This document shows, one piece after another, positions 753-42,264 of a stretch of DNA of 54,973 nucleotides (its first letter is position 1; every line of letters begins with the position of its first letter). Where the stretch lies: positions 1-54,973 of the IMG/VR virus record IMGVR_UViG_3300046752_000076. The stretch is one strand, 5' to 3'. The stretch is from a virus. Taxonomy: Duplodnaviria > Caudoviricetes. Both the position numbers and the translations under genes were made by a program. The notes beneath the pieces were generated by a model. The model was not told where the DNA came from, made no database searches, and was given only the letters and a program-made list of their open reading frames with translations.

Positions 753-784
753 AAGTTAAATGATACCCCCCTGTAAAGTCGTCC
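753..784 (-). promoter_or_regulatory. GGACGAC-type putative late promoter
   Basis: GGACGAC (778-784), 19 nt, TAACTT; just after the stop of the 963-aa gene and ahead of the ATG at 724. Confidence 0.65.
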
Positions 785-787
785 TTT

Positions 788-3679
788 TTAGGGTCTAGTG
801 CCGCGACGAGTAGGATTTTGATTTCCCACTCGATTAGGCGAGATTATATTTATAGGGCTGTAGATTTCTTGAAGATACTCTTGTTCTTCTTTTGTATATT
901 GAGGGTTACGTGGGTTTTCTTTTCTTTTTTGTTCAATGCTTTGCTGTAAGGTAATTTCATTAGGCTGCAAACGCTCTACTTCTGCTTTTTGTTCGGCTTC
1001 GTATGCAATCTTACCTCGTGTTATTTTATCTTTTAGTTGCTGACCCGAATTAAAAAGAGAGTTGATAGCATTATCTACTTCTTGTTTTTTAGCATTCAAA
1101 GACTGCAACTCGTTTTGAACAGTAGTGCGATCTTCAGCTAAGTTTTGATTATATAGAGGAGACTTAAGAAGCATAGATAATCTTTGGATTTCACTGTCCA
1201 AGTTATTACTTGCTGTTTCAAGGCCAAAGCCAACCTCTTTAATTTTTTCAATGGCTTCACTAACAGATCCACCGCTACCCAAAGTTGCTATATAAGCGTT
1301 CTGGTCAGACAGGTTTATTGCAGCACTGGCAAGTTGAGTGGCGTCAGGAATTATAGTCATAGCTTGAGTGCCGTTATCAACAGCAGTTTGGGCAGGAGCT
1401 ACATCGTCTGCAACGCTACCTCGATGTATGTCGAATGTGCTCTTGCGTACTTGATCTCTTGCCTTTGCATAATTCTGTTGAAACAATAAACGCTTCTGAT
1501 CGGTTCTAGGTAAATTCAAAAGCTCTGAAATGTCTTTAAGTTTTGTTGCAGCAAGCGCTATATCCATAGCGTCTTTTTCTAACTCTGCGTACTGAGAGCC
1601 TGCAAACGCGCCCTTTAAATGAACATTTTTAAAAGCGTCATTAACCATCGCACGAGTTATCCTGCCGTTGTCTAAGAAAGTAGTGCCATCTTCGGCTTTT
1701 CTAACAGCCATATTAAGAAGCTCATCGACAACACCTTTGGCAGTATCTTGAGACATTGGAATATTTAACTCAGTAGCAATGTCTTGTAGGAAGCCGCTTA
1801 CATTTGCAGAAATAAGACTTCCTACTTCTTCGGGTTTGCTATCTCCAAGCACAGCAGCATTACCGAGCACATCTTCTGAATATTGAGCTAATTCTTGTAG
1901 GTCTACTGTAATACCTCTTGTTGCGCCGAAACCATCTTCCATGGCGTTGGTAGCAGTATTAAGATTTTCAATTTCTTTTACGTCAGCAGCAGCACGTATT
2001 TTATCAAGCGCAACGTTAAACTGAGTTTCAGCCATACTTGCAAATCTATTTTCGGCATCCTCGATACCTTGGGCTGTTAGTGCTTCTACAAAGTTATTAA
2101 TGAAGTTTTCTTTAGTATTGTCGATTATAAAAGCTTTTTCATTGTCACCCATAATTGATTTAGCTATCTGATTAAGTTCTGCGGTTAGTTCTTGTGTCGC
2201 TCCACCGAACTGATCTTCGATAGTTTTTATTTGTGCTGGGTCTAGCTTTACATCTCGTCCACGTCTTTTACTGATGCTTTCTTCAAGCTTTTTGATAACG
2301 TCGGCGGCAGTAAGGTTTTCATCGACTGCATTTTTGATAATGTTGTCTGAATTTTCAACTGCGAGTTGTGCAGCCGAAATGTCTTCTTGCACTTGTGCAG
2401 CCTCTTGTTCTTCCATTCTCTTTTTAAAGAGGTTGTTGGCAGCAAGAAATGTATCAGCCCCAATTTCCACTCCTTCTGGTGGAACTAGCGTAGCTATTAA
2501 TGAGTTGTATTCCTCTTCAGTGCTGGAAAGTTGAGCAAATCTGATTGCTTCATTAGTAAGAGATGCAAGCGCTTTGTCATTTTTCTCTTTTATGTTTCTT
2601 GCTATCTGACTGTCCATGTCACCAAAATCGGGAATGGCACTTGGATCGTATTTTTCTGTTATTGCTTTTTTGCGACGGTCATATTCTTCTTGATTTGTAA
2701 TACCACGAAGTTGCTCTAGCTCTGCTGTCGCAAGATTGTTGCGTGCTTCTGCAACTAACTCTTTAGCGGTTTTTACTTCACCCGTATTTCCACTGACTAC
2801 TCTTTGGTCATATCGTTCGTTGAGTTCTTGAATAGCTCTAGCAGTTTGCTCAACACTCATGTTACGATTTATAATATCATTGAGCTGACTTCTGTATTCT
2901 TCGCCTCTTCTTTCCACAACAGGTTCGTCTGAGTTGTCAAAGTTGACATTTTTATATGCCTCATCTGGGTATTTTAACTTTAAACTTTCTAACTTACTTT
3001 TGTAGTCTTCAACACTCGTAGCAGTACGAGCTAAATCTTCTAACTCGATTGCAAAATTATTTGTATTTGTTTTAATCCAAGTATTGTGTCTACCTTTGTA
3101 AGCGTTAGTCGCGTCATCTTGCCAAAGATTGCCAGCAGCAGTCATAACGGCTTCAAGGTTTTCTTTGGTCGGGTTATCCATGTACGATTGGATAAGAGCG
3201 CTATTGTCCGTTTTCCATTTTGTCCAAGCAGCGTCTTTAGCGTTTGCTGTAGCAGCAGGAATAAGCTCTGGGTTAATGCCAAACTCTTCGAACTGAGTTT
3301 TTAATTGATCGTCGAAATTGTCTTGTCCGTACATAGTGGCAAGGTCAGTACCAATTTCTTTAGCCAATCTTCTGTTCTCTAAAGCAATCTTGCGCTCACG
3401 TTCTTTTTTAAGACGCGCTTCTTCTGCTTCCTTTTTAGCTTGTTCTTTTTTGTACTTGTCGTAGTTACGCTGCATCTGGGCTTTTGATGGTAATCCACCT
3501 AACCCAGCGCCTGTTTCTTTAATCAGATTGTTTGCGTAGTCCATACGTTCTTGAACAGTAGCACCTGGATTGGCGCTCAAGAAATCATTGTATAGTTTTG
3601 CGTTATCAAGGCGATCCGACTTACGGCGCTCTTCTCCCCGTTGGAGAGCCTTGCTAAATTCGTTTAGTCCAAAAAACAT
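788..3679 (-). CDS. Putative internal virion (DNA ejection) protein, coiled-coil rich
   Basis: 963-aa helical, charged ORF; position after tail and acetyltransferase genes matches podovirus core proteins. Confidence 0.6.
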   Translation of the reverse strand: MFFGLNEFSKALQRGEERRKSDRLDNAKLYNDFLSANPGATVQERMDYANNLIKETGAGLGGLPSKAQMQRNYDKYKKEQAKKEAEEARLKKERERKIALENRRLAKEIGTDLATMYGQDNFDDQLKTQFEEFGINPELIPAATANAKDAAWTKWKTDNSALIQSYMDNPTKENLEAVMTAAGNLWQDDATNAYKGRHNTWIKTNTNNFAIELEDLARTATSVEDYKSKLESLKLKYPDEAYKNVNFDNSDEPVVERRGEEYRSQLNDIINRNMSVEQTARAIQELNERYDQRVVSGNTGEVKTAKELVAEARNNLATAELEQLRGITNQEEYDRRKKAITEKYDPSAIPDFGDMDSQIARNIKEKNDKALASLTNEAIRFAQLSSTEEEYNSLIATLVPPEGVEIGADTFLAANNLFKKRMEEQEAAQVQEDISAAQLAVENSDNIIKNAVDENLTAADVIKKLEESISKRRGRDVKLDPAQIKTIEDQFGGATQELTAELNQIAKSIMGDNEKAFIIDNTKENFINNFVEALTAQGIEDAENRFASMAETQFNVALDKIRAAADVKEIENLNTATNAMEDGFGATRGITVDLQELAQYSEDVLGNAAVLGDSKPEEVGSLISANVSGFLQDIATELNIPMSQDTAKGVVDELLNMAVRKAEDGTTFLDNGRITRAMVNDAFKNVHLKGAFAGSQYAELEKDAMDIALAATKLKDISELLNLPRTDQKRLLFQQNYAKARDQVRKSTFDIHRGSVADDVAPAQTAVDNGTQAMTIIPDATQLASAAINLSDQNAYIATLGSGGSVSEAIEKIKEVGFGLETASNNLDSEIQRLSMLLKSPLYNQNLAEDRTTVQNELQSLNAKKQEVDNAINSLFNSGQQLKDKITRGKIAYEAEQKAEVERLQPNEITLQQSIEQKRKENPRNPQYTKEEQEYLQEIYSPINIISPNRVGNQNPTRRGTRP

Positions 3680-3687
3680 TTAAAGCC

Positions 3688-6485: not shown

Positions 6486-6737
6486 TTATCCGTATCTTTT
6501 CGCAGCCTTACGTACCGCTTCATCTATATTGTAAAACTCAAGCATCCCTGACTTTGGGTTAAATGATCCTGCACCACCAATGTCTTGCAAAAGTTTAATT
6601 GTGAACGGGGATGCACGTACAACCATGCTGTCTCCCTCACGACCCATATCGTCAGCGCCTGCTTCCATTGCAGCTTGCTCTTTACGAGTTCTGATTGACA
6701 TGCCCGTGTTCGGGCCAAAAACGTCACTAAATGCCAT
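6486..6737 (-). CDS. Small putative virion protein
   Basis: 83 aa, GGAGG RBS; GRxGDS...LLQDIGGAGSFNPKSGMLEF resembles a motif in podovirus structural modules. Confidence 0.6.
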   Translation of the reverse strand: MAFSDVFGPNTGMSIRTRKEQAAMEAGADDMGREGDSMVVRASPFTIKLLQDIGGAGSFNPKSGMLEFYNIDEAVRKAAKRYG

Positions 6738-6762: not shown

Positions 6763-6794
6763 ACTATAGGGTAATAGACATGCTACAGTCGTCC
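6763..6794 (-). promoter_or_regulatory. GGACGAC-type putative late promoter
   Basis: GGACGAC (6788-6794) abuts the upstream TAG; 19 nt; TATAGT. Confidence 0.7.
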
Positions 6795-7964
6795 CTATTC
6801 CATCATAAAACGGGCACGGCGCTTTGCATCTCTACGCATTACCCTAGCTGTGTATCCATGACCGTTAATTTCTGGTCGTAAATTACGCCTTCTCATCTCG
6901 TCACCTATCTCGTCGGCAGCGCTTACAGCCTCTGCTGCCAGCGATTTATCTATAGGCATGTATCTATTTGCCTCTTCGTAATTCATCATCATTTCTTGCT
7001 GTAGTTCGCGATTACTTCGTTTACCGAATAGTTCAGCAGACGCAGCCCGACCAAGAAAGCCAGCGTTTAATCTTGCATCGCCAGTATCGTACATATGCTT
7101 GAATACTTTTTTTACGTCTGAAAGAGCGTCGTAATAACTTTGCTCATCTGAACCATACGAAAGTTCAGAATATCCAGTATCGCTATCTCCAACCAAGACG
7201 CTGTAGATACCATCTCGCCCCTGCTCTACTGCAACTGATCCGCCAATTCTATCTTGTATGTCTCTTGGTAATGATGCCCTGTAACTTTCCATAGCATTTC
7301 TAGCCATCTCGGAAGTCATGTACGAACGTATATCGTCATGCTTTCTCTGAAGATGCTCTGGTGTTTTGTTGCCTCGCATGTCTGTAGACAAGTTCATTTT
7401 ACTATCTACATAAGCCATACCCGAAGTGCCCATTGGTGAGCCTAGATTTAAAGTGGCTTTACTCCCTGCGACTGGGTGCATGTGTCGAATGTCTGCCCAT
7501 CGCCAGTTACCTAGAGAGGGCGAATTTTTGGGAGACATGCCTGCCTCAACCTCATTTACGATCTTGGCTTCTTCGGGAGTTACATGAATAGACTGCTTTC
7601 CGTCGCTTTCCATGTTTTGTTTTATAGTATCACCATCCATATCCATTATCCTGTGCATATCTTGAGATCGTTGGTTAAGTTCAGTACCGCTTTCGTATAA
7701 AGGCCACATGCCTTGGTTTATTTCTTCTTCCCAATGATCGAACGCTTCGCGCTCTGTTAATGGTCTATTTGGGTTTACCTCTGGCACCCATGCTGGAACC
7801 GATACGAACTTGCCTTTGTGTGGGCCACGTTCGATCTTAATCCCCGTTGAGTAAACCGTCATTGGTCTACCGTCTTTGTCCTTACCAACCCTACCAGTGG
7901 AAACAGACTGGTTATGATAGTCCATAATCCTCTGTTCGGGATCAGTAAGATTTAGATCAGACAT
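6795..7964 (-). CDS. Hypothetical structural-module protein
   Basis: 389-aa ORF overlapping the upstream tail gene by 8 nt. Confidence 0.6.
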   Translation of the reverse strand: MSDLNLTDPEQRIMDYHNQSVSTGRVGKDKDGRPMTVYSTGIKIERGPHKGKFVSVPAWVPEVNPNRPLTEREAFDHWEEEINQGMWPLYESGTELNQRSQDMHRIMDMDGDTIKQNMESDGKQSIHVTPEEAKIVNEVEAGMSPKNSPSLGNWRWADIRHMHPVAGSKATLNLGSPMGTSGMAYVDSKMNLSTDMRGNKTPEHLQRKHDDIRSYMTSEMARNAMESYRASLPRDIQDRIGGSVAVEQGRDGIYSVLVGDSDTGYSELSYGSDEQSYYDALSDVKKVFKHMYDTGDARLNAGFLGRAASAELFGKRSNRELQQEMMMNYEEANRYMPIDKSLAAEAVSAADEIGDEMRRRNLRPEINGHGYTARVMRRDAKRRARFMME

Positions 7965-11971: not shown

Positions 11972-12004
11972 TATTTATGAAGTTTATTTGCGGCTCAGTC
12001 GTCC
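11972..12004 (-). promoter_or_regulatory. GGACGAC-type putative late promoter
   Basis: GGACGAC (11998-12004) directly after the capsid terminator; AT-rich CATAAAT 18 nt downstream. Confidence 0.6.
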
Positions 12005-12010: not shown

Positions 12011-12042
12011 CAAAAGGGCCACGCGAGAAGCGCAGCCCTTTC
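12011..12042 (-). terminator. Intrinsic terminator after the major capsid gene
   Basis: Minus strand AAAGGGCTGCG-CTTCT-CGCGTGGCCCTTTT imperfect hairpin with U tract. Confidence 0.6.
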
Positions 12043-12064: not shown

Positions 12065-13228
12065 TTAAGCTGTTGCGTTCCAACCCTTGATGTACGCATG
12101 GGTTTTGTCCTGCAATAGTTCCAAACCACATTCGGTAAGGTACTCGTGCTTAACAGCATCCATATCGTTTGACTGACGATCACGTAGCAACTGAGTGTCG
12201 CGACCTTCCATGAAACGGTACTTGAGGTGTGGGAAGTCGATGATGACTGCCGCATTTTCCATGCCTGGAACCTGACGGAATTGAGGGTGTAAATGCACCA
12301 TCAAGTCGCCTGCGAACGTAGCATAGCGAGTTAAGTTCACACCGTATGTGCCCTCAACTACAGTTGGCTGCCAGCGATCTTTACCAAACTTCTGCAAGTG
12401 GCCTGCAACTTTTGCACCACAGAACATGATCTTCTGATTGCTTCCGAAAGCGAAAACATCTTCGATCAATGATCGGTCAAACTGATCTTCTGTCATAACG
12501 CCAGAAGCTGTTGCACGGTCATTTACGTTTGTGATGGTACTAATTAATCCACCTGTCATACGTGTTGGTTGAGCAGTAGAGGCATTTGCTTCATTCTTCT
12601 TACCGAAGAACATTGCTCGCTCAATATCCTGCATGTGCAGTTTAAGAGCTTTCGTAGCCATCTCGTCCTCTTTATCGCCTGTACGAAGATTGGTCGCACG
12701 CAAAGTTTCGGTTACGGTAAATGCCGTACGAAAGATTTGTGTGAAGTTCGAAGCCACGCTGGCGTCAAATGAGATGCCAGTCGGTGATGTCGCACCTTCT
12801 TCGTACGCTGTGCCTGCGATGAATAGATTTGCACCATCATCGATTGCAGCAGCGCCTCCGCCAATACCACGCTCAACTGTTAGTGAGGTAGCAGTACTGT
12901 CGGCAGTACAACGCATAACTTCGTTAGTCGCTGAGTTTACAATAAGTGAACCAGCTACAGCAAAAGTTCCTGCATTGTTGTTAGTGATTGTAATAGACGT
13001 AGCACTGTTGTTTACAGCACCATTGACTACTAATGCACGAGCAGGGAGTTCATCTCTGAAGTTCTTAAATTCTGGGTCATCCGTGGCTTCTGATGAAGTC
13101 ATTGATAACAAAGCGTTTAAGGGAGCGTTCCCATTTGGTTCCAAGAGTGTGAATAACTCTCGGTAATTTTTCGGGCGGAAGTCCGTTGTAAACTGACCTG
13201 TTCCCCGAAGTCCTTGAATACCAGCCAT
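12065..13228 (-). CDS. Major capsid protein (SU10/DUF5309-like HK97 fold)
   Basis: 387 aa; NFTQIFRTAFTVTET, KALKLHMQDIERAMFFG, TRMTGGL and terminal EYLTECGLEL motifs; AAGGAG RBS; follows the scaffold gene. Confidence 0.9.
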   Translation of the reverse strand: MAGIQGLRGTGQFTTDFRPKNYRELFTLLEPNGNAPLNALLSMTSSEATDDPEFKNFRDELPARALVVNGAVNNSATSITITNNNAGTFAVAGSLIVNSATNEVMRCTADSTATSLTVERGIGGGAAAIDDGANLFIAGTAYEEGATSPTGISFDASVASNFTQIFRTAFTVTETLRATNLRTGDKEDEMATKALKLHMQDIERAMFFGKKNEANASTAQPTRMTGGLISTITNVNDRATASGVMTEDQFDRSLIEDVFAFGSNQKIMFCGAKVAGHLQKFGKDRWQPTVVEGTYGVNLTRYATFAGDLMVHLHPQFRQVPGMENAAVIIDFPHLKYRFMEGRDTQLLRDRQSNDMDAVKHEYLTECGLELLQDKTHAYIKGWNATA

Positions 13229-13360
13229 TGCTAGTCTCCTTCTAGGTTAAGTTACTATCTTCGAGGTACTAATGACCACGCGGTACAATCACGCGAAAAT
13301 CCTTCGTCCCTATATATAACATCGAAAAAAAGAGCCGTAGCGCAAATCGATATTGATTTG

Positions 13361-13391
13361 ATATTGTCAGAAAAGTTTATTGTGGTCGTCC
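13361..13391 (-). promoter_or_regulatory. GGACGAC-type putative late promoter for the capsid gene
   Basis: GGACGAC (13385-13391), 18 nt, CAATAT; right after a terminator. Confidence 0.65.
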
Positions 13392-13398: not shown

Positions 13399-13422
13399 AA
13401 AAAAAATCGCCCCGAAGGGCGA
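13399..13422 (-). terminator. Intrinsic terminator after the scaffold gene
   Basis: TCGCCC-TTCG-GGGCGA followed by a run of T on the minus strand. Confidence 0.85.
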
Positions 13423-13427
13423 CTTTC

Positions 13428-14441
13428 TTAACCCATACGTTTGCTCATCGCGTTCTGTGCAAGTCGTGCAAGGGTGTCATCTCCGCCTGTTTCTGCTGCT
13501 TGGCTAGTAGGGCCACCTGATTGTGAGCGTAAATATGCCTCACGTCGTTTAGCCATTTCGCGTATGCGTTCGAACTCTGGCGCGTTCATTTGGTTTTTAA
13601 AGTCATTAACGACTTTGTTCGTAAGCCCCATGTCCACAAAGTCTTCGGCAGTATACCCACGCTCTAGTGCGTACGCACGAAAGTCATCGAGAGCTTCATC
13701 AGGCAAGCCAGCTTGCTGCTGGGCTTTATCAAGATTGTTTCGTATCGTGTTGGTTATAGTATCTTCACGAGATTGCATTGCTTCTTCTCGTGATTGATTG
13801 CCTTGCTGACCAGCCGCCATAGCTTGCTGCATGATGTTCTGGTTCATATTAACCATTTGACCCATCATTCTTTTCATTTCAGCTATTTCGATATTCATCT
13901 CACGAAACCCAGGTGGTAACGAGATGGCATTTTCATCTTCGTACTTCTGAAACTCTTCATTTAGTTTGGCAGACAAAGCCTCTGCATCACCCTGTTGGGG
14001 TGCTACTGGTTGGGCTACTCCTTCTTGTTTTGGACGAGCCTGTCCCATCTGAGCATTTTTACTCATAGCCTTTAAGCCTGCTGCCATTAACTTAGCAGCT
14101 TCTTCTGGGCCTTGACCTGTCTTTTCCATAATCATGCTAGCAAGATCATTTACAGGTTTCATCTGCGCTTGTTTGAAGTTGAGGTCACGATACCGTTCGT
14201 ACGTACCAGCAATTTGTGACGGTGAAAGAGGACGTTCTTCATCGCCAATCTTCACGTTATAAATGATTGCCTCTGCTTGAGACTTGTCGCCTTCAGTCTC
14301 AGGAGATGCAGCCGCAACTGCTTTTTCTTGTGCAGTCTCTGGTGCCTCCTTCGTCTCTGGCTTTGGTTGTGCTGGCGCACCCATTTGTGAAGCAGCAATA
14401 CGTGCTACTTGATCTGCGTCTTTTTCTGGTTGTCTAGCCAT
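13428..14441 (-). CDS. Capsid scaffolding protein
   Basis: 337 aa, Gln/Glu/Ala-rich and helical, YNVKIGDEERPLS motif, immediately upstream of the capsid gene. Confidence 0.75.
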   Translation of the reverse strand: MARQPEKDADQVARIAASQMGAPAQPKPETKEAPETAQEKAVAAASPETEGDKSQAEAIIYNVKIGDEERPLSPSQIAGTYERYRDLNFKQAQMKPVNDLASMIMEKTGQGPEEAAKLMAAGLKAMSKNAQMGQARPKQEGVAQPVAPQQGDAEALSAKLNEEFQKYEDENAISLPPGFREMNIEIAEMKRMMGQMVNMNQNIMQQAMAAGQQGNQSREEAMQSREDTITNTIRNNLDKAQQQAGLPDEALDDFRAYALERGYTAEDFVDMGLTNKVVNDFKNQMNAPEFERIREMAKRREAYLRSQSGGPTSQAAETGGDDTLARLAQNAMSKRMG

Positions 14442-15320: not shown

Positions 15321-15413
15321 TTAGCCTTGCGTACACGGGCAGTCTTTGTGCTGCATGTTTCCTGTCTGAGTTTTTAAACCCAGCTTTTTAACTTCTTTGG
15401 ATGTCTTAGCCAT
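15321..15413 (-). CDS. Basic micro-protein (30 aa) with CPC motif
   Basis: MAKTSKEVKKLGLKTQTGNMQHKDCPCTQG; TAATG coupling. Confidence 0.55.
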   Translation of the reverse strand: MAKTSKEVKKLGLKTQTGNMQHKDCPCTQG

Positions 15414-15523
15414 TAGTAACCCTTCTTCTTCTTCATAGGCTTACCAGACTTGGCCGCTGCTTTCTTAGCTGCTGCTTTACCCTTTTTTGTGTAAGGGAAT
15501 TTTTTCTTTCCTACTGTTGGCAT
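15413..15523 (-). CDS. Lys/Ala-rich micro-protein (36 aa)
   Basis: MPTVGKKKFPYTKKGKAAAKKAAAKSGKPMKKKKGY; AAGGAG RBS. Confidence 0.7.
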   Translation of the reverse strand: MPTVGKKKFPYTKKGKAAAKKAAAKSGKPMKKKKGY

Positions 15524-15533
15524 GGTATACTCC

Positions 15534-15797
15534 TTAACAGTTCCAAGCACGACGGCTCCAATAGTTAGCCGACAATTTATTTGATTTACCTTTTATCCCA
15601 CCGCTACGAGCGCAGTACGATTTCTTTCGAGAGGGCGTACCTTTCTTGATTGTCATCTTGGCATCCCCGAAGCGAATTATTTTTTCCTTGCCATTGGCGC
15701 AGGCTTTCACAACAAACTTCTTGCCGCCCGAAACCTGACGCTTCGGTTTGTTACAGGCCATAGATTTCTTGGAAGCTTTCTTTTTTGCTGCTGGCAT
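15534..15797 (-). CDS. Lys-rich small protein (87 aa)
   Basis: KKFVVKAC...KIIRFGD...RKKSYCARS...SANYWSRRAWNC; AAGGAG RBS. Confidence 0.75.
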   Translation of the reverse strand: MPAAKKKASKKSMACNKPKRQVSGGKKFVVKACANGKEKIIRFGDAKMTIKKGTPSRKKSYCARSGGIKGKSNKLSANYWSRRAWNC

Positions 15798-15815: not shown

Positions 15816-15846
15816 ATTATGTTTATTATACAGCTACATGTCGTCC
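15816..15846 (-). promoter_or_regulatory. GGACGAC-type putative late promoter
   Basis: GGACGAC (15840-15846), 18 nt, CATAAT. Confidence 0.7.
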
Positions 15847-15930
15847 TTATTTATCGTCTTTCCAAACCGTCCAAAGCAAAATTAAAACAAAGACAATTAA
15901 TAAAATATCGACTAACATTATCCTCTAAAT

Positions 15931-15937
15931 GTCGTCC
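15931..15937 (-). promoter_or_regulatory. Second GGACGAC motif in the same intergenic gap
   Basis: 4 nt after the oxygenase stop codon; -10 element unclear. Confidence 0.5.
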
Positions 15938-21999: not shown

Positions 22000-22283
22000 T
22001 AGTTTTTATCTCCACACTTGCACTCTGGGCAATGAGCCATCTTTGCTAGTTGTGCTAGTCTCGAACCAGACATTCCTATTAAGTCCTCTGCGTTTGTTAC
22101 TCGTCCTGCCACGTCGCCAAGATCACGCTGTAGGCTTTCTCTAGTTTGTGATATTGCCCTAATAAGGTCTGCTATGTCGTCCCTTATAGGTTTCAATTCT
22201 TCTTCTAGTCGGGCGTTAATATATTCACGAGTATCAGTATCTATTTTCGAAGCCCAAGCGCTGCTAGGTACGGGGTTTGTCAT
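21999..22283 (-). CDS. Hypothetical coiled-coil protein
   Basis: 94 aa, coupled to the portal gene; C-terminal CPECKC. Confidence 0.55.
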   Translation of the reverse strand: MTNPVPSSAWASKIDTDTREYINARLEEELKPIRDDIADLIRAISQTRESLQRDLGDVAGRVTNAEDLIGMSGSRLAQLAKMAHCPECKCGDKN

Positions 22284-24203: not shown

Positions 24204-24235
24204 CATTTACTCCTATAATAACCCTACAGTCGTCC
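24204..24235 (-). promoter_or_regulatory. GGACGAC-type putative late promoter for the portal gene
   Basis: GGACGAC (24229-24235) abuts the TerL TAA; 19 nt; TAAATG. Confidence 0.65.
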
Positions 24236-26477: not shown

Positions 26478-26508
26478 ATGTTACGCATCTGCGTTACGCA
26501 TGTCGTCC
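26478..26508 (-). promoter_or_regulatory. GGACGAC-type putative late promoter heading the terminase operon
   Basis: GGACGAC (26502-26508), 18 nt, TAACAT; spacer region holds an ATGCGTAAC direct repeat. Confidence 0.65.
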
Positions 26509-30434: not shown

Positions 30435-30463
30435 TTGACACATCGTACGTTGTGTTATATACG
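30435..30463 (+). promoter_or_regulatory. Sigma70-like promoter for the AAA/VWA operon
   Basis: TTGACA-N17-TATACG. Confidence 0.55.
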
Positions 30464-30487
30464 CTACATATTCAACAAGGAAATCAA

Positions 30488-32101
30488 ATGTCAAACTTAA
30501 CTATCAAACGAATTGCTGAGACACATAACGCTCGTGAAGCACAGAAAGTTCTTCGCGGTGTTATCCAACACAAGCTTCCGTACGATCACGACTGGTGGCA
30601 ACCAGTTGTCAACGCAGCTTGTGCGTCCCCAGCGATCAACAATACTCACCCAAAGTCACGTTCGATGAAGAGTGTCAGCGTCTCGCAGATACTTGATCGT
30701 ATGAACGTGGATGGCCTTACGTTTCTCATCAACTACTTCAATACGGTAGGCACGGAAGAGGCTGCGTTGCTTCTTGCAAATGACTTCGTGCATCTCGATA
30801 GCCACGCGAAGCTCGATGAGATTACGAGTTGGCCTTTCACGCAAGACCTCGCAACCCTCGATGAACTGTACGAGACTGATCTCGAAAACGATCTCATGGA
30901 AATCGGTGGCTGCGCTGTCGAGGCCGAGCCAGAAGCTGAGGCCGAGGCCGAGGTCGAGCCAGAGGTTGAAGCAGATACATCCGATACGTACTCCGTACCT
31001 GATGCCATTGCTTCGGCTGCCAACGTACTGCTTGAGGCTGCCACTGGCGGTGACGAGAAAGACTTGCAAGCACTGCTTGACGAGGTGGTTACGCTTCGCA
31101 AGAAGCCTGACTACGCTGCCGTGCCAGAGGTTGATGCTACAGGCGACATACCGTTCGGCGCACCCATACGAAAGAACGTACAGGATGTGTTCGGTATCAA
31201 GCACAAGATGCTAGACTTCGAGATCAATGCGTACGAGTGGGCTGGCACCAACCCTTTGGTGCCTGTTGTTGATGAGAACTATATCTTCAACGTCGATGCT
31301 CTGCATGACTGCTTGTGGGCGCGTAATAATAAAGAGAACGCGTGGCTATCGGGTCATACTGGTACTGGCAAGTCTACCTTTGTCGAGCAAGTATGTGCCC
31401 GTACTGGCTACATGTTGGTTCGTGTCAACATGGACAGCGGTATCGAGCGTGACACGTTCGTCGGTATCATGGGTCTTGAGGCTGATGAGAACGGCAACAA
31501 CATCAGCAAGTTCGTGGACGGTATACTGCCGAAAGCAATGCAGATGCCGTGTATTCTCCTGCTCGATGAGCTTGATGCTGTACGTCCAGATATTGCGTAC
31601 GTATTGCAGCCTGTCCTTGAGGGCAAGTCGTTACGATTGCTTGAGGATGGTGGCCGTATGGTTCACCCACATATGGACTTCCATATCTGTGCGACTGGTA
31701 ACTCTACTGGTCAAGGCGATAGCTCTGGTATGTACGCGGCTGCTGTCAAAATTCAGTCTCGTGCTCTGGTCAATCGGTTCGCTACTCACATTCGTATCGA
31801 TTACCTATCTCTTGCTGACGAGATGGCGCTGGTTCGCAACGCTGCTCCAACGCTGAGTGCCAAGTCGGAAGAGTACATCCAAGACTTCGTGATGAACTAC
31901 CGACAAGGCTTCCTAGATGGGACGATTGTAACACCCATATCACCTCGTAACACCGCTACGATTGGCAAGTACGTAGCCAGTCTTGAGGATCGCATTGGTT
32001 GCTTGGCTTCTGTCAAGAAAGCACTGCACATGAACGTGATGCTGACCATCGATGAGGCTGATGCCATTGCGGTAACTGGCATCATGGATCGCATATCATA
32101 A
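30488..32101 (+). CDS. MoxR-family (CobS/CbbQ-like) AAA+ ATPase with long N-terminal extension
   Basis: GHTGTGKST, LLLDELD, ATGNSTGQGD, ALVNRF, ISPR; likely start ATG 30488. Confidence 0.9.
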   Translation: MSNLTIKRIAETHNAREAQKVLRGVIQHKLPYDHDWWQPVVNAACASPAINNTHPKSRSMKSVSVSQILDRMNVDGLTFLINYFNTVGTEEAALLLANDFVHLDSHAKLDEITSWPFTQDLATLDELYETDLENDLMEIGGCAVEAEPEAEAEAEVEPEVEADTSDTYSVPDAIASAANVLLEAATGGDEKDLQALLDEVVTLRKKPDYAAVPEVDATGDIPFGAPIRKNVQDVFGIKHKMLDFEINAYEWAGTNPLVPVVDENYIFNVDALHDCLWARNNKENAWLSGHTGTGKSTFVEQVCARTGYMLVRVNMDSGIERDTFVGIMGLEADENGNNISKFVDGILPKAMQMPCILLLDELDAVRPDIAYVLQPVLEGKSLRLLEDGGRMVHPHMDFHICATGNSTGQGDSSGMYAAAVKIQSRALVNRFATHIRIDYLSLADEMALVRNAAPTLSAKSEEYIQDFVMNYRQGFLDGTIVTPISPRNTATIGKYVASLEDRIGCLASVKKALHMNVMLTIDEADAIAVTGIMDRIS

Positions 32102-32125
32102 TCAAATTTCAACAAGGAGTAACAA

Positions 32126-34105
32126 ATGTTTTCGCAAAATTCTGTATCTGCCCTAGCGACTGAGCTAGACAAGCTGTCTCGCATCATGGGTAACAAGAAC
32201 GTACGTACCACTTTCAACGGGAGTGGTGCTTACACCGATGGTCATACTGTCAACGTGCCAGCAATGGACATGGACGCGCAGCTTGACCCAACCCACCAAG
32301 CGATCATGCGTGGCTATCATATACACGAGGTCAGCCACGTTACTGACACTGACTTCAGCGTGTTCAACAAACGTGGCGTCAAGAAGATCAAGGACACATG
32401 GAACTGCTGTGAGGATGTGTTCGTAGAGCGCAAGGCTATGGAGAAATTTCCAGGAGCAAGGCGTTCTCTCCAACAGACAATCAATCACGTACTTGAGAAA
32501 GAGAACGAGCACTGGGCTGACAACCCAGAGAAGGATGAGAAGCGTCGAGAGAAGTGGTGGACAGAGATACCATACGCTGCTCTGCAAGTGGCTCGTAGGA
32601 AGATGGGGTACGACAGCGAGGCACTGGATCAGTACATTGATGACATGCCAAAGGAACTAATGAGAGAAGCGCGGAAGTTCTCCACGAAGATGATCGACGC
32701 TGACAATTCACATGATGCTCTGGCGGTTGCTCGTGCAATCGAGCGCCGCATGAAGAAGCTTGGTGAGGAGTACGTCGAAGAGGAACAGGAGAAGCAACAG
32801 CAAGGGATCGGTCAGCCCAACCCAGAAGGTGACGAGCAAGGGCGTATTGAGAACGGTAGCGATCAAAACTCTGACGACGGCGACAGTGATGGCGACGGAG
32901 ACGACAACGGTGATGGCGATGGCGACGGAACGAACGGTGGCGGCGACGGCGAAGACGGCGACGGCGGTGCTGGCGGTAGCGGCGGTGACGATGAAGACGG
33001 CGACGCTGACACTGGTACGAACGCTCAACCCATTACCATCGATCCCAACGAGGGTGGCTTCAGTACTGCTGATGCTGAAGAGCGTGCAAAGGGTGCGATG
33101 AACGCTGTCTTTGGCAAGTACTCAAGCAAGGATGCCAAACACGTTTGCACTGACAAAGCGGAAGTGTTCGACGATCACAAGCAAGTTTGGTCGTGGCTGT
33201 ATGATGTTGCCAATAGAACGGACAACGGTAAACGCGTCCACGCGCACATCAAAAACAACATTCAGGGACATAGGACTACGCCCCATGGGAGTACGCATCT
33301 TACCACCAGAAACAACACGAAGATTATGAATGAGCGTATGCCTGATGATGTTCGTTTGTATAGCGCTAGACTTGCACGTCTACTGTTGTCGCAAGAGGAC
33401 AGACGTAAAGAAGGTGGTCATCGTTCTGGCAAGATCGATGCGCGTAGGCTTTCACAAATCAAAGCAGGCAACACCAATGTCTTTGCACGTAACAGTGTAA
33501 CCAAGACTGCTGAGACGCGCATCATGGTTGCGGTTGATGGTTCGTCCAGTATGCAATGGGAGCCTACCGTTTCTGCAATACTGGCTCTCAACCAGTGCCT
33601 TGGTCGTGCCAATGTCAAGTTTGATATTGTCGAATGGGGTGGCGTATCATGGGGGCATCAAGACAAAGTGTTTGGAGACAGACCTTGGCTTGTCTATCAC
33701 AAGAAATCTTCCGACAACTGGCGAAAGATCAACACTGGCTTTGAGTTCCAGCCAGTCGGCGGCGACACACCCACGTACTCTAGCATGGTTGGTACTGCTC
33801 GTATTATGAGCGAGTGGCAAGAGCCTCGACGCGTGCTCCTGTTCCTTACTGATGGCAAACCCAATGGTAGGGAACATGAGAGCAAGGTGGTTGGTGATCT
33901 TGTCAAGGATATGTTCGCTGGCGGTATCGAAAGCTACGCCGTTTATATTGGACGGCAGCTCAAAGAAAATTCTGTTACGAGACAATTGTTGGACATGATG
34001 TTCGATGACAAATGGACAGAGTGTACGTTCGAGAAGCTTGGCGAGACATTGCTCGGCGGTATCGAGAGGCTGCTCATCAAAGGGGGTCACGCCCATGCCG
34101 CGTGA
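32126..34105 (+). CDS. CobT-like VWA-domain protein, partner of the MoxR ATPase
   Basis: AYTDG...HEVSH, Asp/Gly-rich linker, SGKIDARRL, MIDAS motif DGSSSM, GDTP, LTDG. Confidence 0.85.
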   Translation: MFSQNSVSALATELDKLSRIMGNKNVRTTFNGSGAYTDGHTVNVPAMDMDAQLDPTHQAIMRGYHIHEVSHVTDTDFSVFNKRGVKKIKDTWNCCEDVFVERKAMEKFPGARRSLQQTINHVLEKENEHWADNPEKDEKRREKWWTEIPYAALQVARRKMGYDSEALDQYIDDMPKELMREARKFSTKMIDADNSHDALAVARAIERRMKKLGEEYVEEEQEKQQQGIGQPNPEGDEQGRIENGSDQNSDDGDSDGDGDDNGDGDGDGTNGGGDGEDGDGGAGGSGGDDEDGDADTGTNAQPITIDPNEGGFSTADAEERAKGAMNAVFGKYSSKDAKHVCTDKAEVFDDHKQVWSWLYDVANRTDNGKRVHAHIKNNIQGHRTTPHGSTHLTTRNNTKIMNERMPDDVRLYSARLARLLLSQEDRRKEGGHRSGKIDARRLSQIKAGNTNVFARNSVTKTAETRIMVAVDGSSSMQWEPTVSAILALNQCLGRANVKFDIVEWGGVSWGHQDKVFGDRPWLVYHKKSSDNWRKINTGFEFQPVGGDTPTYSSMVGTARIMSEWQEPRRVLLFLTDGKPNGREHESKVVGDLVKDMFAGGIESYAVYIGRQLKENSVTRQLLDMMFDDKWTECTFEKLGETLLGGIERLLIKGGHAHAA

Positions 34106-36981: not shown

Positions 36982-37992
36982 CTACGTAAGCGACATCACG
37001 GCTGCTTTGTGATCTTCGTATGTTGTGTTCATGTATCGCATGACCATCTTCAAATCACTGTGCCCAAGTAAATCAGCGATCACTTTAGGCGGTACGCCAT
37101 TACGTGCAAGACGTGTAGCGAATGTGTGGCGTAGTGTGTACGGACTTTTATTTATCTTTAGTTTATCCGTCACCTTACGCCAGTGATACCCGATCTGTTT
37201 GTTCGTTTCGAACGGTCTGCCTTCCAGCAAGAACGGATATAAACTTGGCGGTGGATCACTCTTTGGTATTGTTGCGAGTGCCCTGTCGTTAAGGGGCACC
37301 CGACGCTCCCTGAGTTCTCCGTCTGCTCCCTTATACGAGCCGAGGACTACCGTACTGTTGGTAAAGTCTACGGCTGTATAAGTTAAACGCATTGCTTCTA
37401 TTGGTCGTGCGCCAGTATGCAAAAGGAAAGTACACAATCGTCTCACGTCAGGATGCAAATCAGGAAAGATTAATTCTATCTCTTCCACTGACAGCGTATC
37501 GGTTTTGTGTTTTCCCTCTCGCGGCTTCTTTATTTTTATACTGTCACGTAACCCTAAAGATGCAGCAAAATTTAGCAGACCTTGTAATTGGTTTAAGTCA
37601 CGTCTGATCGTAGAGTTCGCATTGCCTTTGTTGACGTGTACCTCTTCAACATATTCCTCAATATCATTAAGGTCTATCTTGTTGACTTGGTAGTCACCAA
37701 AGTAATCCGTCAATCGCATTACGTAATCCACTGTAGACTTTGAGCTGCCTGTGTGCGGCGACTTTAAATATCTACGCGCTACGGATTTGAATTTGTTTTG
37801 TGCTCCATGAGTATTCTTCGCACCTAACTTAATCGCACCCGATAAAACCTTCGCTTCAAACTCAGCGCATAGGTCTTTAGCGTGGACGTAATCATGTGTA
37901 CCCAGAGTATGCCTTACTCGTAATCCTTGGAACGAGCCAATGGCGTGGTACATTTTACGACCAGAAATTTTTTTAACTTTGAATAACGGCAT
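36982..37992 (-). CDS. int: Tyrosine integrase
   Basis: TGARPIE, YTLRHTFATRL, LLGHSDLKMVMRY catalytic motifs. Confidence 0.95.
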   Translation of the reverse strand: MPLFKVKKISGRKMYHAIGSFQGLRVRHTLGTHDYVHAKDLCAEFEAKVLSGAIKLGAKNTHGAQNKFKSVARRYLKSPHTGSSKSTVDYVMRLTDYFGDYQVNKIDLNDIEEYVEEVHVNKGNANSTIRRDLNQLQGLLNFAASLGLRDSIKIKKPREGKHKTDTLSVEEIELIFPDLHPDVRRLCTFLLHTGARPIEAMRLTYTAVDFTNSTVVLGSYKGADGELRERRVPLNDRALATIPKSDPPPSLYPFLLEGRPFETNKQIGYHWRKVTDKLKINKSPYTLRHTFATRLARNGVPPKVIADLLGHSDLKMVMRYMNTTYEDHKAAVMSLT

Positions 37993-37995: not shown

Positions 37996-38190
37996 TTACA
38001 CTCCTACGGGTGGGGCTAGGGGAACAACGGGAATACTCCATGCTCTACCACTGACCCAATCTGACTGAGGTACTCCGCACCTCTGCATCATTTTAAATCT
38101 CTGAATAATTCTTGACGTTGATGTGCATAAGTAGGACCAATTATAGTGTGACCCTTTAGCTATGTTATGTTTCATATAGTTAGGGAACAT
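37996..38190 (-). CDS. Hypothetical protein upstream of the integrase
   Basis: 64 aa, TAATG-coupled to the LuxR-type gene. Confidence 0.45.
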   Translation of the reverse strand: MFPNYMKHNIAKGSHYNWSYLCTSTSRIIQRFKMMQRCGVPQSDWVSGRAWSIPVVPLAPPVGV

Positions 38191-38642
38191 TATTCTGTTT
38201 CCCTTCTGTAAATCGCAGCGTGTGGATCGTTGCCGACTTCAAAAGTCTTGCCCCAATCTACTGGCAAACCACCAGATGCTTTCTGGTAATCTGTCGGGTC
38301 AACCCGTTCCATAATATCGTTTAGAACGAGGGCTGCCTGACCCCTTGTTTTAGTTCCAACCTTCTTGCAGACCGCACGTACATGCAACTTCACAGTATTC
38401 TCTCCGATATTTAGAACTTGGCCTATGTCTTTATTAGACCATCCTTCTATTAAGAGCTGTGATGTAACATGTTGCTTAGATGTCATAGTACGTAGCAAAG
38501 ATAATTCTGCTGCGGATACTTTAACATCTTGAGCAAGTACGTTGCTTTGGTTGGCAGTACTATTACTAAGTAATAAGTTTGTAATAATGTCCAACTTGGC
38601 TTCAATTCTGGCTAAGTCGAACTTCAAAGTTTGTACTGACAT
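38190..38642 (-). CDS. LuxR/GerE-type HTH regulator
   Basis: MTSKQ...GWSNKDIGQVLNIGENTVKLHVRAVCKKVGTKTRGQAA; likely start MSVQT at 38642; no receiver or AHL-binding domain. Confidence 0.85.
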   Translation of the reverse strand: MSVQTLKFDLARIEAKLDIITNLLLSNSTANQSNVLAQDVKVSAAELSLLRTMTSKQHVTSQLLIEGWSNKDIGQVLNIGENTVKLHVRAVCKKVGTKTRGQAALVLNDIMERVDPTDYQKASGGLPVDWGKTFEVGNDPHAAIYRRETE

Positions 38643-39202: not shown

Positions 39203-39313
39203 GGTTTGAAAAATTAATAATCAGTTTCATTACCACTACAGTTTCGAAAAAAAATAGTAAAGTAAACTGAACTGAGTTCGCTTAATATACAAGCCTAATG
39301 AACATAATAGTTA

Positions 39314-39523
39314 CTAATCGCACACCCGATGGTGTGTTTCGTTATGAACTATAACGTCTGTGAGCATCTCTTTATCGTTCTTCATTAACCAATCGGCTAC
39401 CTCGTCGTTGTCAAAGTAGATGGGGTAGGCTATATCGCAGTACGTATCACCGCTTATCTTTGCGCACCCAAGTAGAGGCACGATCAGACAACTCAGTATC
39501 ATCCATAGCTTTAATTTCATCAT
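39314..39523 (-). CDS. o-spanin (Rz1-like lipoprotein)
   Basis: Signal peptide with LLGC lipobox, extra Cys residues, overlaps the i-spanin in another frame. Confidence 0.75.
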   Translation of the reverse strand: MMKLKLWMILSCLIVPLLGCAKISGDTYCDIAYPIYFDNDEVADWLMKNDKEMLTDVIVHNETHHRVCD

Positions 39524-39686
39524 CGATTACTTTCTGTATTTTTAAATTTGACAGGCGTTTTTCGTCTATCTTTCTTTTGATTTTGTCCTGACCCCTTGCG
39601 ACACCTGTTGAATAAATTCCAATCAGGCCAAGTACGAACGCTGCGCCAACGAGCGCGTAGAGCTGAAGCTTTTGCATACCAAACAT
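39447..39686 (-). CDS. i-spanin (Rz-like)
   Basis: N-terminal TM helix plus charged helix; follows the endolysin. Confidence 0.7.
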   Translation of the reverse strand: MFGMQKLQLYALVGAAFVLGLIGIYSTGVARGQDKIKRKIDEKRLSNLKIQKVIDDEIKAMDDTELSDRASTWVRKDKR

Positions 39687-40358
39687 TTACTTCCAGCCTT
39701 CTGCCCAAGCCTTAATTCTTTCTCTCATTATATAAACGCCGAAAAGAATAGTGAGGCCAGCAAAACCCAGAATGATATACTGACTTGTTTCGTTCATGCC
39801 TGAGAGTGAAGTGACGGCAGTACCAGCACTGGCTGCAACTGTAGCTGCTGATGCCTTAACTGTTTTACTTTGGGTTGGTTTCGTACGCTCGGGCTTCTTA
39901 GCCGTTGCTTCGGAGAGCGACATGCCAGCCAACCATTTCTGTACGCGAAAGCCAGGACATGCTTTGGACGAGATGCGATTGTGTCCAATCACTCGCTCGC
40001 TCTTTATGTTGTACTGACCCTGTAGCTTTCGTATCAGTTCGTATGCTGCTGCTAGTTGTAGCGGTGTGAAGTGATCGGTTGCTAGGTCGTCTGCATCTGA
40101 ACCGAAGCCACCAAAAAGTGCGATGCCAATACTATCTTTATTATGACCACGCGCATGACTACCGATCATCTCGATAGGTCTGCCCTGTACGACTTCTCCG
40201 TTGCGACCTATGAGGTAATGATATCCAATCGCCTTCCATCCCCGATCTACGACGTGCCACTTTTCCACTTCTTTGACTTGTTCGTTAATTGTTTTCTTAT
40301 CCCACCAATCGGGACGGGTCGCGGTACAGTGGACAATGATCTGTCTAATCTGTCTCAT
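39687..40358 (-). CDS. Endolysin, N-acetylmuramoyl-L-alanine amidase (Amidase_2) with C-terminal hydrophobic segments
   Basis: IIVHCTAT, IGYHY, GSHARGHN, GHN...KACPGF; C-terminal YIILGFAGLTILFGVYIM. Confidence 0.92.
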   Translation of the reverse strand: MRQIRQIIVHCTATRPDWWDKKTINEQVKEVEKWHVVDRGWKAIGYHYLIGRNGEVVQGRPIEMIGSHARGHNKDSIGIALFGGFGSDADDLATDHFTPLQLAAAYELIRKLQGQYNIKSERVIGHNRISSKACPGFRVQKWLAGMSLSEATAKKPERTKPTQSKTVKASAATVAASAGTAVTSLSGMNETSQYIILGFAGLTILFGVYIMRERIKAWAEGWK

Positions 40359-40753
40359 AGTTTAAACTCCCTGTGTAAACTTTCTGTTTGAGCTTCAAGT
40401 GTGAAGTCTATTGGGTTTATTTTAAGAGATATGGGGGGTTTGTCGTCCCATCTGCGAGCTAGGACTAGGCCAGTATCGAGAGCTACGAACAGATACACAC
40501 CGTCGTAAAAATCTTTACGGGCTTCGTTGACTTTAAAACAGTATCGGTAGTTGTCTGAGTACCTATCTTTTCGGTGGTATGGTTTACGTGACGACTTTAC
40601 TTGTACGCGAATAATATCACCGTTTGGATGTGATACCCATAGGTCATCGTGAGGGAGGTCTACGTGAGTGGTGCGTAGTCCCAGCTTTTCTAAAACGTAC
40701 GCCGCATAAAATTCTGCTGCACGTCCAGAGTAAATATTGTTCTGATTGCTCAG
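40355..40753 (-). CDS. PD-(D/E)XK endonuclease-like protein with non-canonical start
   Basis: Absent from the ORF track. 132-codon open frame LSNQNNIYSGRAAEFYAAYVL...PHDDLW...IRVQVKSS...YLFVALD...EFKL; ATGA coupling to the endolysin. Confidence 0.7.
   Translation of the reverse strand: MSNQNNIYSGRAAEFYAAYVLEKLGLRTTHVDLPHDDLWVSHPNGDIIRVQVKSSRKPYHRKDRYSDNYRYCFKVNEARKDFYDGVYLFVALDTGLVLARRWDDKPPISLKINPIDFTLEAQTESLHREFKL
40419..40448 (-). promoter_or_regulatory. GGACGAC-type putative late promoter for endolysin and spanins
   Basis: GGACGAC (40442-40448), 17 nt, TAAAAT about 60 nt before the endolysin ATG; lies inside the nuclease ORF. Confidence 0.5.
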
Positions 40754-41029: not shown

Positions 41030-41036
41030 TACTTCC

Positions 41037-41575: not shown

Positions 41576-41636
41576 GCCCTATCTTCCCTTCCTAGTTCAG
41601 CTTTCGTGCAGCGCAGCCCTAGCGGAGCTGCCCCAA

Positions 41637-42128
41637 CTAAGCGATCCCCTTGAACCTCAAGACCCCGTAACCCAATAATCCTAGAAGCCCTAAAAATAGT
41701 ACGCCTGCTGCTACGTACCCAAGAAATTCCATACGTTCGTTGTGATCTGCTAGTGCTTGCTTGCGTGCTTTGGCGCGTGCAGCACGCGCTTCGTTTTCAA
41801 AAATTAGGAAGCGATCCCAACTCCCTGGCCTCCCGTACAAGCGGCACATCGATCTTAAATTTTCTCTATTCTCTTTTAATTCTTCTAACTTTTGGAAAGC
41901 TTCGAAGTCGCTGGCTGACTTACCCAAGAACTTATTGTAGATAGAGTTCTTGTCCTTATCTACCATAGCCTTCAGCTTCTCTTCACTATCGAGAACCACA
42001 CCAATTTTGTCGGCAACGGAGGCTAACTCCTTGCCGTTCTGTATCGATTGCTTGATCACCCCGTATGCTGCGTTACACGCGCTTGCCAGTGCGATTACTT
42101 CTGCTACCGCCACGTCGAACTTCTCCAT
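41637..42128 (-). CDS. Membrane-anchored helical protein of the lysis region
   Basis: 163 aa with C-terminal TM helix; exact start uncertain. Confidence 0.65.
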   Translation of the reverse strand: MEKFDVAVAEVIALASACNAAYGVIKQSIQNGKELASVADKIGVVLDSEEKLKAMVDKDKNSIYNKFLGKSASDFEAFQKLEELKENRENLRSMCRLYGRPGSWDRFLIFENEARAARAKARKQALADHNERMEFLGYVAAGVLFLGLLGLLGYGVLRFKGIA

Positions 42129-42225
42129 TGACAGACACGGTTGTCTTTGGTGTTCGTAAGATTTTTTGGTACGCAGTCTTTGCTGCCTTACCCCGTCGTG
42201 AATTTGATTTTGCTTTACGTGCCAT
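42073..42225 (-). CDS. Possible Arg/Lys-rich micro-protein (50 aa)
   Basis: MARKAKSNSRRGKAAKTAYQKILRTPKTTVSVNGEVRRGGSRSNRTGKRV; ATG 7 nt after the -10 box, so possibly leaderless. Confidence 0.45.
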   Translation of the reverse strand: MARKAKSNSRRGKAAKTAYQKILRTPKTTVSVNGEVRRGGSRSNRTGKRV

Positions 42226-42232
42226 GAAGATC

Positions 42233-42264
42233 AACATAACCGATATGAGTTTGCTATGTCGTCC
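42233..42264 (-). promoter_or_regulatory. GGACGAC-type putative late promoter heading the lysis region
   Basis: GGACGAC (42258-42264), 19 nt, TATGTT; 5 nt after the resolvase stop. Confidence 0.7.

Follow-up and report, generated by a model that had tools for sequence, protein, structure and literature searches.

We find that the heptamer GGACGAC, repeated along the late-gene strand of the viral contig IMGVR_UViG_3300046752_000076, is probably the upstream (−35-region) element of a phage-specific class of late promoters, which in our model, drawn from the comparison of related sequences, would be used by the host polymerase together with a phage factor. The window analysed here is the whole 54,973-bp contig (45.4% G+C); its source is a temperate CRP-810-type marine podovirus, and the nearest cultured relative is Roseobacter phage CRP-810 (OR671924.1, also locus L025 in our comparisons), which has the same gene order and a large terminase (TerL) that is 59% identical. 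What carries the promoter reading is that the heptamer, its spacing, a −10 hexamer and the distance to the start codon are kept across ~60 distinct relatives while the spacer sequence varies.

In a first set of 24 related viral contigs (TerL 77–94% identical), all 23 loci that include the TerL/portal junction carry the heptamer directly after the TerL stop codon. A profile search reaching down to 57% TerL identity gave a wider set of 95 usable loci, which reduce to 60 distinct junction sequences (TerL 57–94%), and the exact heptamer is present in 59 of these 60, the exception being locus L123; in some junctions it shares its first G with the TAG stop codon. Counting from the first nucleotide after the heptamer, TA is found at +19 to +21 in 59/59 heptamer-bearing junctions and the portal ATG lies 5–7 nt past the hexamer in 55 of the 59, while positions +1 to +14 hold almost no information across the junctions. 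Conservation of the flanking elements around a scrambled spacer indicates selection on the flanks and none on the spacer.

G001 and G002, both complete genomes of relatives, have the remaining sites of the window in orthologous positions, and several of these sites recur in CRP-810, where late starts are predicted behind the heptamers at 57576, 54978, 52777, 44221, 41242 and 31273. The preliminary description of this DNA had staked its promoter class on conservation at orthologous positions, and this is borne out by the 59/60 junctions and by these three genomes. Orthologs of the site behind the RusA gene (G001, G002 and 13+ loci) share the order heptamer, N18–19, TAnnTT, 6–7 nt and ATGGCACGT, with no ribosome-binding site. 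The combined signature GGACGAC-N18/19-TAnnnT occurs four times on the late strand and zero times on the other strand in each of seven motif-rich genomes (the window, G001, G002, G004, CRP-810, G005 and G006); G005 has 12 late-strand copies of the heptamer against 1 on the other strand, with the same promoter geometry. The strict heptamer is kept across genomes of 41.5–53% G+C.

Within the window GGACGAC is found 15 times against 4.59 ± 2.07 copies expected, a count that 0 of 100 dinucleotide shuffles reached, and 13 of the 15 copies lie on the minus strand, which is the late-gene strand. By our curated gene list only 6.3% of the contig is intergenic, and yet nine minus-strand copies fall there (0.15 expected, Poisson P ~7e-14), making GGACGAC the top non-homopolymer 7-mer concentrated in intergenic DNA (9/15 copies, P = 4.8e-8). 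Outside the window the same 7-mer enrichment is uninformative because of the crude gene calls in the other genomes, and whole-locus k-mer counts in the relatives are dominated by coding bias. All 11 coordinates given in the preliminary description are exact minus-strand matches, and its chance level of about three copies per strand is close to the ~2.3 that we compute; its list was incomplete, lacking two further minus-strand copies (36436 and 43508) and two plus-strand copies (43377 and 45717), each of the four inside a gene. Its statement that the motif is missing ahead of early and replication genes agrees with the copy positions, as no copy in the window precedes such genes or the plus-strand blocks. 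The eleven sites with their associated hexamers and two of the start codons are as follows.

42258..42264, minus strand: heptamer 5 nt past the RusA stop codon, the putative first late promoter, with −10 TATGTT at 42233-42238
42223-42225, minus strand: ATG of a 50-aa open reading frame (ORF; MARKAKS...) at the post-RusA site, with no Shine-Dalgarno (SD) sequence
40442..40448, minus strand: heptamer in a 47-aa ORF upstream of the amidase gene, with −10-like TAAAAT at 40419-40424
26502..26508, minus strand: heptamer heading the packaging operon, with −10 TAACAT at 26478-26483
24229..24235, minus strand: heptamer abutting the terminase stop codon, with −10 TAAATG at 24204-24209
24194-24196, minus strand: portal ATG, 7 nt past the hexamer of site 24229
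22176..22182, minus strand: heptamer in a 94-aa ORF after the portal gene, with −10-like CAATAT at 22151-22156
15931..15937, minus strand: heptamer at the upstream boundary of a window-specific ~91-nt insertion, with no good −10
15840..15846, minus strand: heptamer before the 87-aa gene 15534-15797 (SD sequence present), with −10 CATAAT at 15816-15821
13385..13391, minus strand: heptamer 6 nt past an intrinsic terminator, with −10 CAATAT at 13361-13366
11998..12004, minus strand: heptamer 7 nt past a terminator hairpin, with −10-like CATAAA at 11974-11979
6788..6794, minus strand: heptamer abutting the stop codon of ORF 6795-7964, with −10 TATAGT at 6763-6768
778..784, minus strand: heptamer after a 963-aa ORF, with −10 TAACTT at 753-758

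The hexamers start at +19 or +20, which sets the gap at 18–19 nt; the −10-like hexamers proposed earlier do exist, and the gap of 17–19 nt given with them has to be narrowed. A strict TAnnnT at +19 to +21 follows four of the nine intergenic sites against a background of 5.1% (P = 7e-4), and the other intergenic sites have looser AT-rich hexamers (CATAAT, CAATAT, TAAATG) ending at +24/+25, so that the claim of a −10-like hexamer behind most copies stands in this looser sense and fails for site 15931. The nine intergenic sites also share a context: AATAA precedes the heptamer, W-T-G-T-A-G often follows it, and A/T richness peaks at +20 to +24. The hexamers of site 778 and its orthologs are TAACTT, TAGTCT and TAATCT, keeping T/A at +20/+21 and T at +25 in G001 and G002 and leaving the middle free, as expected for a −10 element.

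How this architecture relates to ordinary sigma-70 promoters bears on whether a phage factor has to be invoked. The 3′ GAC of the heptamer stands in register with the GAC of TTGACA at a 17–18 nt spacer (ACGACn) and the TTG part has no match; since the last three bases align in this way, the heptamer reads as an extended, non-canonical variant of a −35 element. The earlier suggestion that GGACGAC replaces the −35 box is right about its placement in the −35 region, and the aligned GAC makes it something other than a simple replacement. The sites have a sigma-70-type −10 at a fixed distance and lack a TTGACA-like −35 that includes the TTG; a sigma-70 consensus scan picks up ACGACA as a weak −35 with a 16–17 nt spacer at two sites only, as 9-of-12 matches, and canonical sigma-70 promoters are not enriched anywhere in the contig (28 vs 32.8, 15 vs 25.1 and 16 vs 26.2 expected). 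If the host holoenzyme itself, with its housekeeping or an alternative sigma, were to read GGACGAC-N18-TAnnnT, the timing of late expression would come from something else. The GAC register speaks for such direct reading, as does the behaviour of the complete relatives G009 and G010, which vary heptamer positions 1, 3 and 4 and keep positions 5–7 (GAC), and no phage factor is tied unambiguously to the motif. The invariant GGAC, on the other hand, lies outside the canonical hexamer and is kept across the whole 41.5–53% G+C range, the motif is not known to resemble an alternative-sigma consensus sequence, and early promoters of the same phage use TTG-type boxes, as in this region:

45417..45519, no strand assigned: divergent control region of the early genes; −35-like boxes TTGACC/TTGCAA, an operator-like palindrome, no heptamer

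Constitutive, host-read late promoters would moreover be hard to reconcile with lysogeny, and an integrase gene is present in each of the seven complete relatives that have the strict motif; we therefore consider host reading alone unlikely. Promoters of the extracytoplasmic function (ECF) sigma class have a GGAAC-type −35 and a CGT-type −10. An ECF-sigma promoter was rejected as a candidate, as no Sigma70_r2 match was found among the ORFs scanned and the −10 here is TA-type and not CGT-type.

Two of the sites are preceded by strong terminators. A hairpin at ~13400-13429 (−19.9 kcal/mol, followed by U8) stands before site 13385 and another at ~12012-12042 (−21.0 kcal/mol) before site 11998; both have z ~ −5 and U-tracts, and the heptamers begin 6–8 nt later. 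The same arrangement of terminator and then motif precedes the capsid gene in G009. A terminator directly upstream of the heptamer supports a promoter, as a promoter restores expression after the terminator. This placement also bears on the idea that the heptamer acts in RNA, as an RNase site or as an ops- or nut-like site recruiting antitermination along one long late transcript. Such a signal would fit copies that are co-oriented with the genes and lie between cistrons, several of them downstream of others in what is potentially a single long operon. A recruitment site just past a terminator, however, comes too late to affect that terminator, neither a conserved fold nor a conserved pairing partner is seen across heptamer, spacer and −10, Rfam has no match there, and the conserved partner is a DNA-type −10 at a fixed distance with an ATG 5–7 nt later, which is the geometry of a promoter. 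An RNA-level signal is in our judgement highly improbable.

The predicted start of transcription falls on the start codon in the case of the portal and post-RusA promoters, which is why we think that at least these two probably give leaderless mRNAs. The ATG of the post-RusA site and of its orthologs lies 6–7 nt past the hexamer with no SD sequence. Other sites are followed by conventional starts: the gene downstream of site 11998 begins at ATG 11945 with an SD sequence, and behind site 26502, where an ATG at 26469-26471 (+31) is kept in position in four genomes, TTG 26439 (+63), which has a good SD sequence, opens the next real gene. A long leader lies between site 13385 and the major capsid gene (12065-13228); orthologs of the site read GGACGAC in G001 and G002, GGTAGAC in G009 and G010, and GGACGAA in CRP-810.

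The capsid leader contains a 9-nt block, CGCTACGGC, at ~13333-13342 that is invariant in the six genomes aligned there (window, G001, G002, G009, G010 and CRP-810; 39–53% G+C). It has no Rfam match and may act as an RNA element of the leader or as a site to which a protein binds. Around 41242 in CRP-810, a strong terminator-like hairpin bearing a T-run comes immediately after a post-capsid heptamer and its CATAGT hexamer; the predicted transcript there would begin inside the left arm of the hairpin and might escape termination.

We propose the architecture (AATAA)GGACGAC, 18–19 nt of free sequence, a TAnnnT-type −10, and a start ~6–7 nt further on. With the hexamer at −12 to −7 the heptamer would occupy about −38 to −32, its GGAC part extending upstream. 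Host core RNA polymerase with its housekeeping sigma would read the −10 and a phage-made factor would read the heptamer; if that factor is absent in lysogens, the structural and lysis genes would stay silent until late. Promoters of this kind would lie before the packaging genes, the portal gene, the post-portal tail genes, the small-gene cluster, the capsid gene, the post-capsid genes, two tail/ejection blocks and the lysis region, and two of them would restart transcription right after intrinsic terminators. Transcription starts in the window are predicted near 42225, 26471, 24196, 15809, 13354, 11967, 6756 and 746. We infer activator dependence of the late promoters because of the poor −35, the temperate lifestyle and the ordinary −35 boxes at the early promoters.

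Which phage protein might read the heptamer? Scans of 67 and 51 window ORFs against PHROG and Pfam detected no phage RNA polymerase or full sigma factor and no Sigma70_r2 match, in line with the preliminary description, which had seen neither; it had overlooked two small proteins that we consider candidates. They are listed here together with a third helix-turn-helix (HTH) protein of the window.

42647..43036, minus strand: HTH-zinc-ribbon protein (~129 aa; sigma4/HTH_23-like HTH at the N terminus, Cys4 zinc ribbon at the C terminus)
38190..38642, minus strand: LuxR/GerE-type protein (~150 aa; long helix at the N terminus, then a NarL-like HTH, conserved tail at the C terminus)
45141-45416: Cro-like HTH protein, also universal, located at the early switch

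The HTH-zinc-ribbon gene follows a ~265-nt non-coding region and closely precedes RusA and the first late promoter; its product is encoded in all nine complete genomes examined (7/7 of the motif-rich ones) and in the incomplete contigs G007 and G008. A heptamer follows within 1.5 kb downstream in 46 of the 59 loci that encode the protein and extend at least 1.5 kb beyond it. The protein has no Pfam, NCBIfam or PDB match, and its 77 homologues are all unnamed or 'hypothetical'; its second HTH helix (C-V/I-D-T-L-K-R-I-L) hardly varies, even where identity falls to ~35%. The nearest named atlas clusters are of sigma70-region-4/HTH_23 types (scores 0.90–0.92), a lead only, and the structure model (pLDDT 68.7) has no significant PDB match, the best (E 0.35) being to GerE/sigma4-type domains. 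We tentatively put this protein forward as the reader of the heptamer. A more speculative extension, to which we would give somewhat less credence, is that it represents a new family of late transcription factors in which a sigma-region-4-like HTH takes over −35 recognition at GGACGAC, redirecting the host RNA polymerase to ~10 late promoters, several of them leaderless, in a globally distributed marine phage family. The corresponding ORF of CRP-810 (14026-14340, minus strand) is unannotated and lies between gp22 (RusA-like resolvase) and gp23 (primase).

The second candidate, the LuxR-like protein, is recognised through its HTH, which matches NarL-family domains at a profile E = 5e-10 and superimposes on the NarL and LiaR DNA-binding domains with a root-mean-square deviation of ~1 Å. 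In the NarL/GerE family one GerE-type HTH reads a ~7-bp site, and the stand-alone GerE-type protein of the window is like these readers; it is unlike them in having no receiver or autoinducer domain, and in that it is missing from G005. The HTH is the only part of it that Pfam or PDB matches, with a sub-threshold Sigma70_r4_2 match besides. In the window its gene adjoins that of the integrase, and in CRP-810 the two overlap. The protein is absent from G005, G009 and G010, three genomes that CheckV rates 100% complete; this is the common result of a profile search, of hmmsearch --max run on six-frame ORFs, and of the Pfam models GerE and Sigma70_r4_2. As heptamer reader we regard it as a doubtful candidate. 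The remaining odds fall to another phage protein or a host factor; neither of the two proteins fits the phyletic pattern perfectly, and a host factor is possible. The CRP-810 paper, in the text available to us, regards the LuxR gene as possibly regulating quorum sensing or lysogeny (PMC11288001). Domain and structure comparison finds no autoinducer-binding or receiver domain in the protein, and this predicted domain content does not support a ligand-binding quorum-sensing receptor; the protein may belong to a lysogeny module rather than to quorum sensing.

If the heptamers were instead bound by a prophage repressor such as the LuxR-like protein, they would block late initiation or elongation in lysogens as operators or stoperators do. 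The heptamer is an asymmetric word, mostly intergenic and in a single orientation relative to transcription (13/15 copies on the late strand, nine intergenic), and the Cluster A mycobacteriophage stoperators, as the accessible portion of PMC6550527 describes them, are likewise many short asymmetric words in one orientation, mostly in short intergenic spaces. The LuxR-like gene stands beside the integrase in the window and in CRP-810, and it is present in six of the seven motif-rich and in neither of the two motif-poor genomes. According to that same portion, however, stoperators are spread genome-wide, are mostly not promoter-associated and diverge with their repressor (PMC6550527), whereas the heptamer stays unchanged as TerL identity falls from 94% to 57%, is confined to late and lysis genes with none in the early and replication regions, and stands at a fixed distance from a −10 and a start codon. 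G005 has the full motif class without a GerE-type protein, and two sites follow terminators, where blocking elongation would be pointless. Repression through the heptamers is accordingly distinctly unlikely in our view.

Several observations weigh against the promoter reading or against its assignment to a particular factor. The complete genomes G009 and G010 have GGACGAC at chance level (7 and 3 copies, with no strand bias), their orthologous sites reading the relaxed GGTAGAC, GGAAGAC or AGACGAC, and they keep the same recognition region in the HTH-zinc-ribbon protein, so that motif and protein do not co-vary there. The LuxR-like protein tracks the strict motif in eight of the nine genomes, the exception being G005. 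In the window a strict TAnnnT accompanies only 4/9 intergenic sites, site 15931 has no convincing −10, and the +31 ATG behind site 26502 opens an ORF of only 15–56 codons. The portal junction has a conserved purine-rich tract at +15 to +18, 11–13 nt upstream of the ATG, which could be a long-spaced ribosome-binding site, and part of the conservation there may serve translation. Finally, two RNA-type seawater libraries from one coded study (P13), runs that initially matched ~10% of a 10-kb stretch, contain contigs covering the capsid gene at at least 99% identity, which suggests phage transcription in the sea, although DNA can be present in RNA-type libraries; the matches cover only 12222-13311, as assembled contigs, which cannot show 5′ ends.

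For comparison with known systems, T4 middle promoters join a MotA box to a sigma-70 −10 and work with AsiA, a mode known as 'sigma appropriation'. The late promoters proposed here resemble them in pairing a good −10 with a phage-specific −35-region word that replaces TTGACA and serves a later temporal class. T4 uses host polymerase with a phage DNA-binding factor, and here the dependence on a factor is inferred only; the MotA box is centred near −30 and the present heptamer near −35, word and reader differ, and the present phage is temperate and not T4-like. In Mu (C/Mor), P2 (Ogr) and P1 (Lpa) small regulators made at the end of the early or middle genes activate late promoters with poor −35 regions. 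Here too several late promoters share a short conserved upstream element and a poor −35, but the Mu, P2 and P1 sites are dyad-symmetric or lie elsewhere (Ogr near −55), unlike an asymmetric heptamer overlapping −35. The ORFs scanned gave no MotA, AsiA, Mor/C or Ogr-type match. By analogy, the present system appears to work like the T4 middle and the Mu, P2 and P1 late promoters and to belong to none of them. The matches listed by our literature search held nothing relevant on a GGACGAC promoter in phages or on a roseophage late promoter, and the word 'promoter' occurs zero times in the CRP-810 paper (PMC11288001).

The two heptamers inside genes that have −10-like hexamers may be internal promoters. 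The 22176 copy would probably serve the downstream tail genes: those related loci that extend far enough are listed with a further copy, ~2.05 kb downstream of the one at the junction, and CRP-810 also has a heptamer in its post-portal ORF, elsewhere within that ORF than in the window. The 40442 copy is possibly an internal promoter for the lysis genes; it encodes W-D-D and is kept in relatives, and coding constraint is inseparable from promoter function there. Among the intergenic sites, 6788 stands before gene 6486-6737 and the tail and ejection genes that follow it; the gene headed by 778 (2-736) is homologous to the 'internal virion protein D' region of CRP-810. Between heptamers 15931 and 15840 lies the ~91-nt insertion (15847-15930), absent from the closest relative L003, which has a single heptamer site there, with CATAAT. 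The insertion carries a hydrophobic micro-ORF of 23 codons (MLVDILLIVFVLILLWTVWKDDK) with its SD sequence ~2 nt from the ATG. In the micro-protein unit that the preliminary description had listed among those headed by the motif, the ATG is at +13 and so upstream of any predicted start site.

Family scans placed the main genes of the window as follows, and identified tail and ejection genes, RusA, a primase-helicase and a Sak4/SSB/exonuclease recombination block as well.

24236-25900: TerL
22280-24196: portal
12065-13228: major capsid protein
39314-40498: lysis cassette
36982-37992: integrase
30452-34105, plus strand: CobS-like AAA+ and CobT/vWA-like pair

The CobS/CobT-like pair belongs to the universal core of all nine complete genomes compared, a presence unusual for genes of this type, which are usually treated as auxiliary metabolic genes. 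A giant ORF of 2138 aa corresponds to CRP-810 gp35, adjoining an 'internal virion protein'; considered as a possible virion RNA polymerase, it resembles no solved structure in sequence and matches nothing in PHROG or Pfam, and sequence similarity alone cannot exclude a polymerase. The window has no tRNAs. No near-identical deposited phage record was found, and TerL and HTH-zinc-ribbon alignments found no prophage relatives in representative bacterial genomes. The only nucleotide match to a deposited phage is a 125-nt stretch (15411-15535), 81% identical to Pelagibacter phage Lederberg, which overlaps a 45-aa ORF and adjoins the end of the 87-aa gene.

Two other words are frequent in the window. 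The palindrome CGTACG occurs 45 times against 11.1 ± 3.5 expected, with 67 copies in G001, 56 in G002, 79 in CRP-810, 16 in G004, 1 in G009 and 0 in G005, G006 and G010; its avoidance in one set of genomes may reflect restriction pressure. GTTCGTA occurs 44 times against 7.0 ± 2.7 expected, three of the copies in the non-coding 43036-43300 upstream of the HTH-zinc-ribbon gene, and a Markov check attributes most of the excess to the shorter words TTCGTA and CGTA.

CRP-810-type phages form a diverse and globally distributed marine family, as the available part of their description has it (PMC11288001). For this family the conserved signature provides testable late transcription starts and opens its late regulator to direct test, while the search for the late switch is narrowed to two small conserved genes, one of a family that is unannotated in the reference genome. 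The signature would make it possible to annotate late regulons across hundreds of uncultured contigs, would flag probable leaderless late mRNAs, and may offer a ready-made phage-specific inducible pair of promoter and regulator for marine bacteria. Phage-specific late promoters are known as a kind, and the meaning of the present ones would be larger if the HTH-zinc-ribbon family proves to be the late switch.

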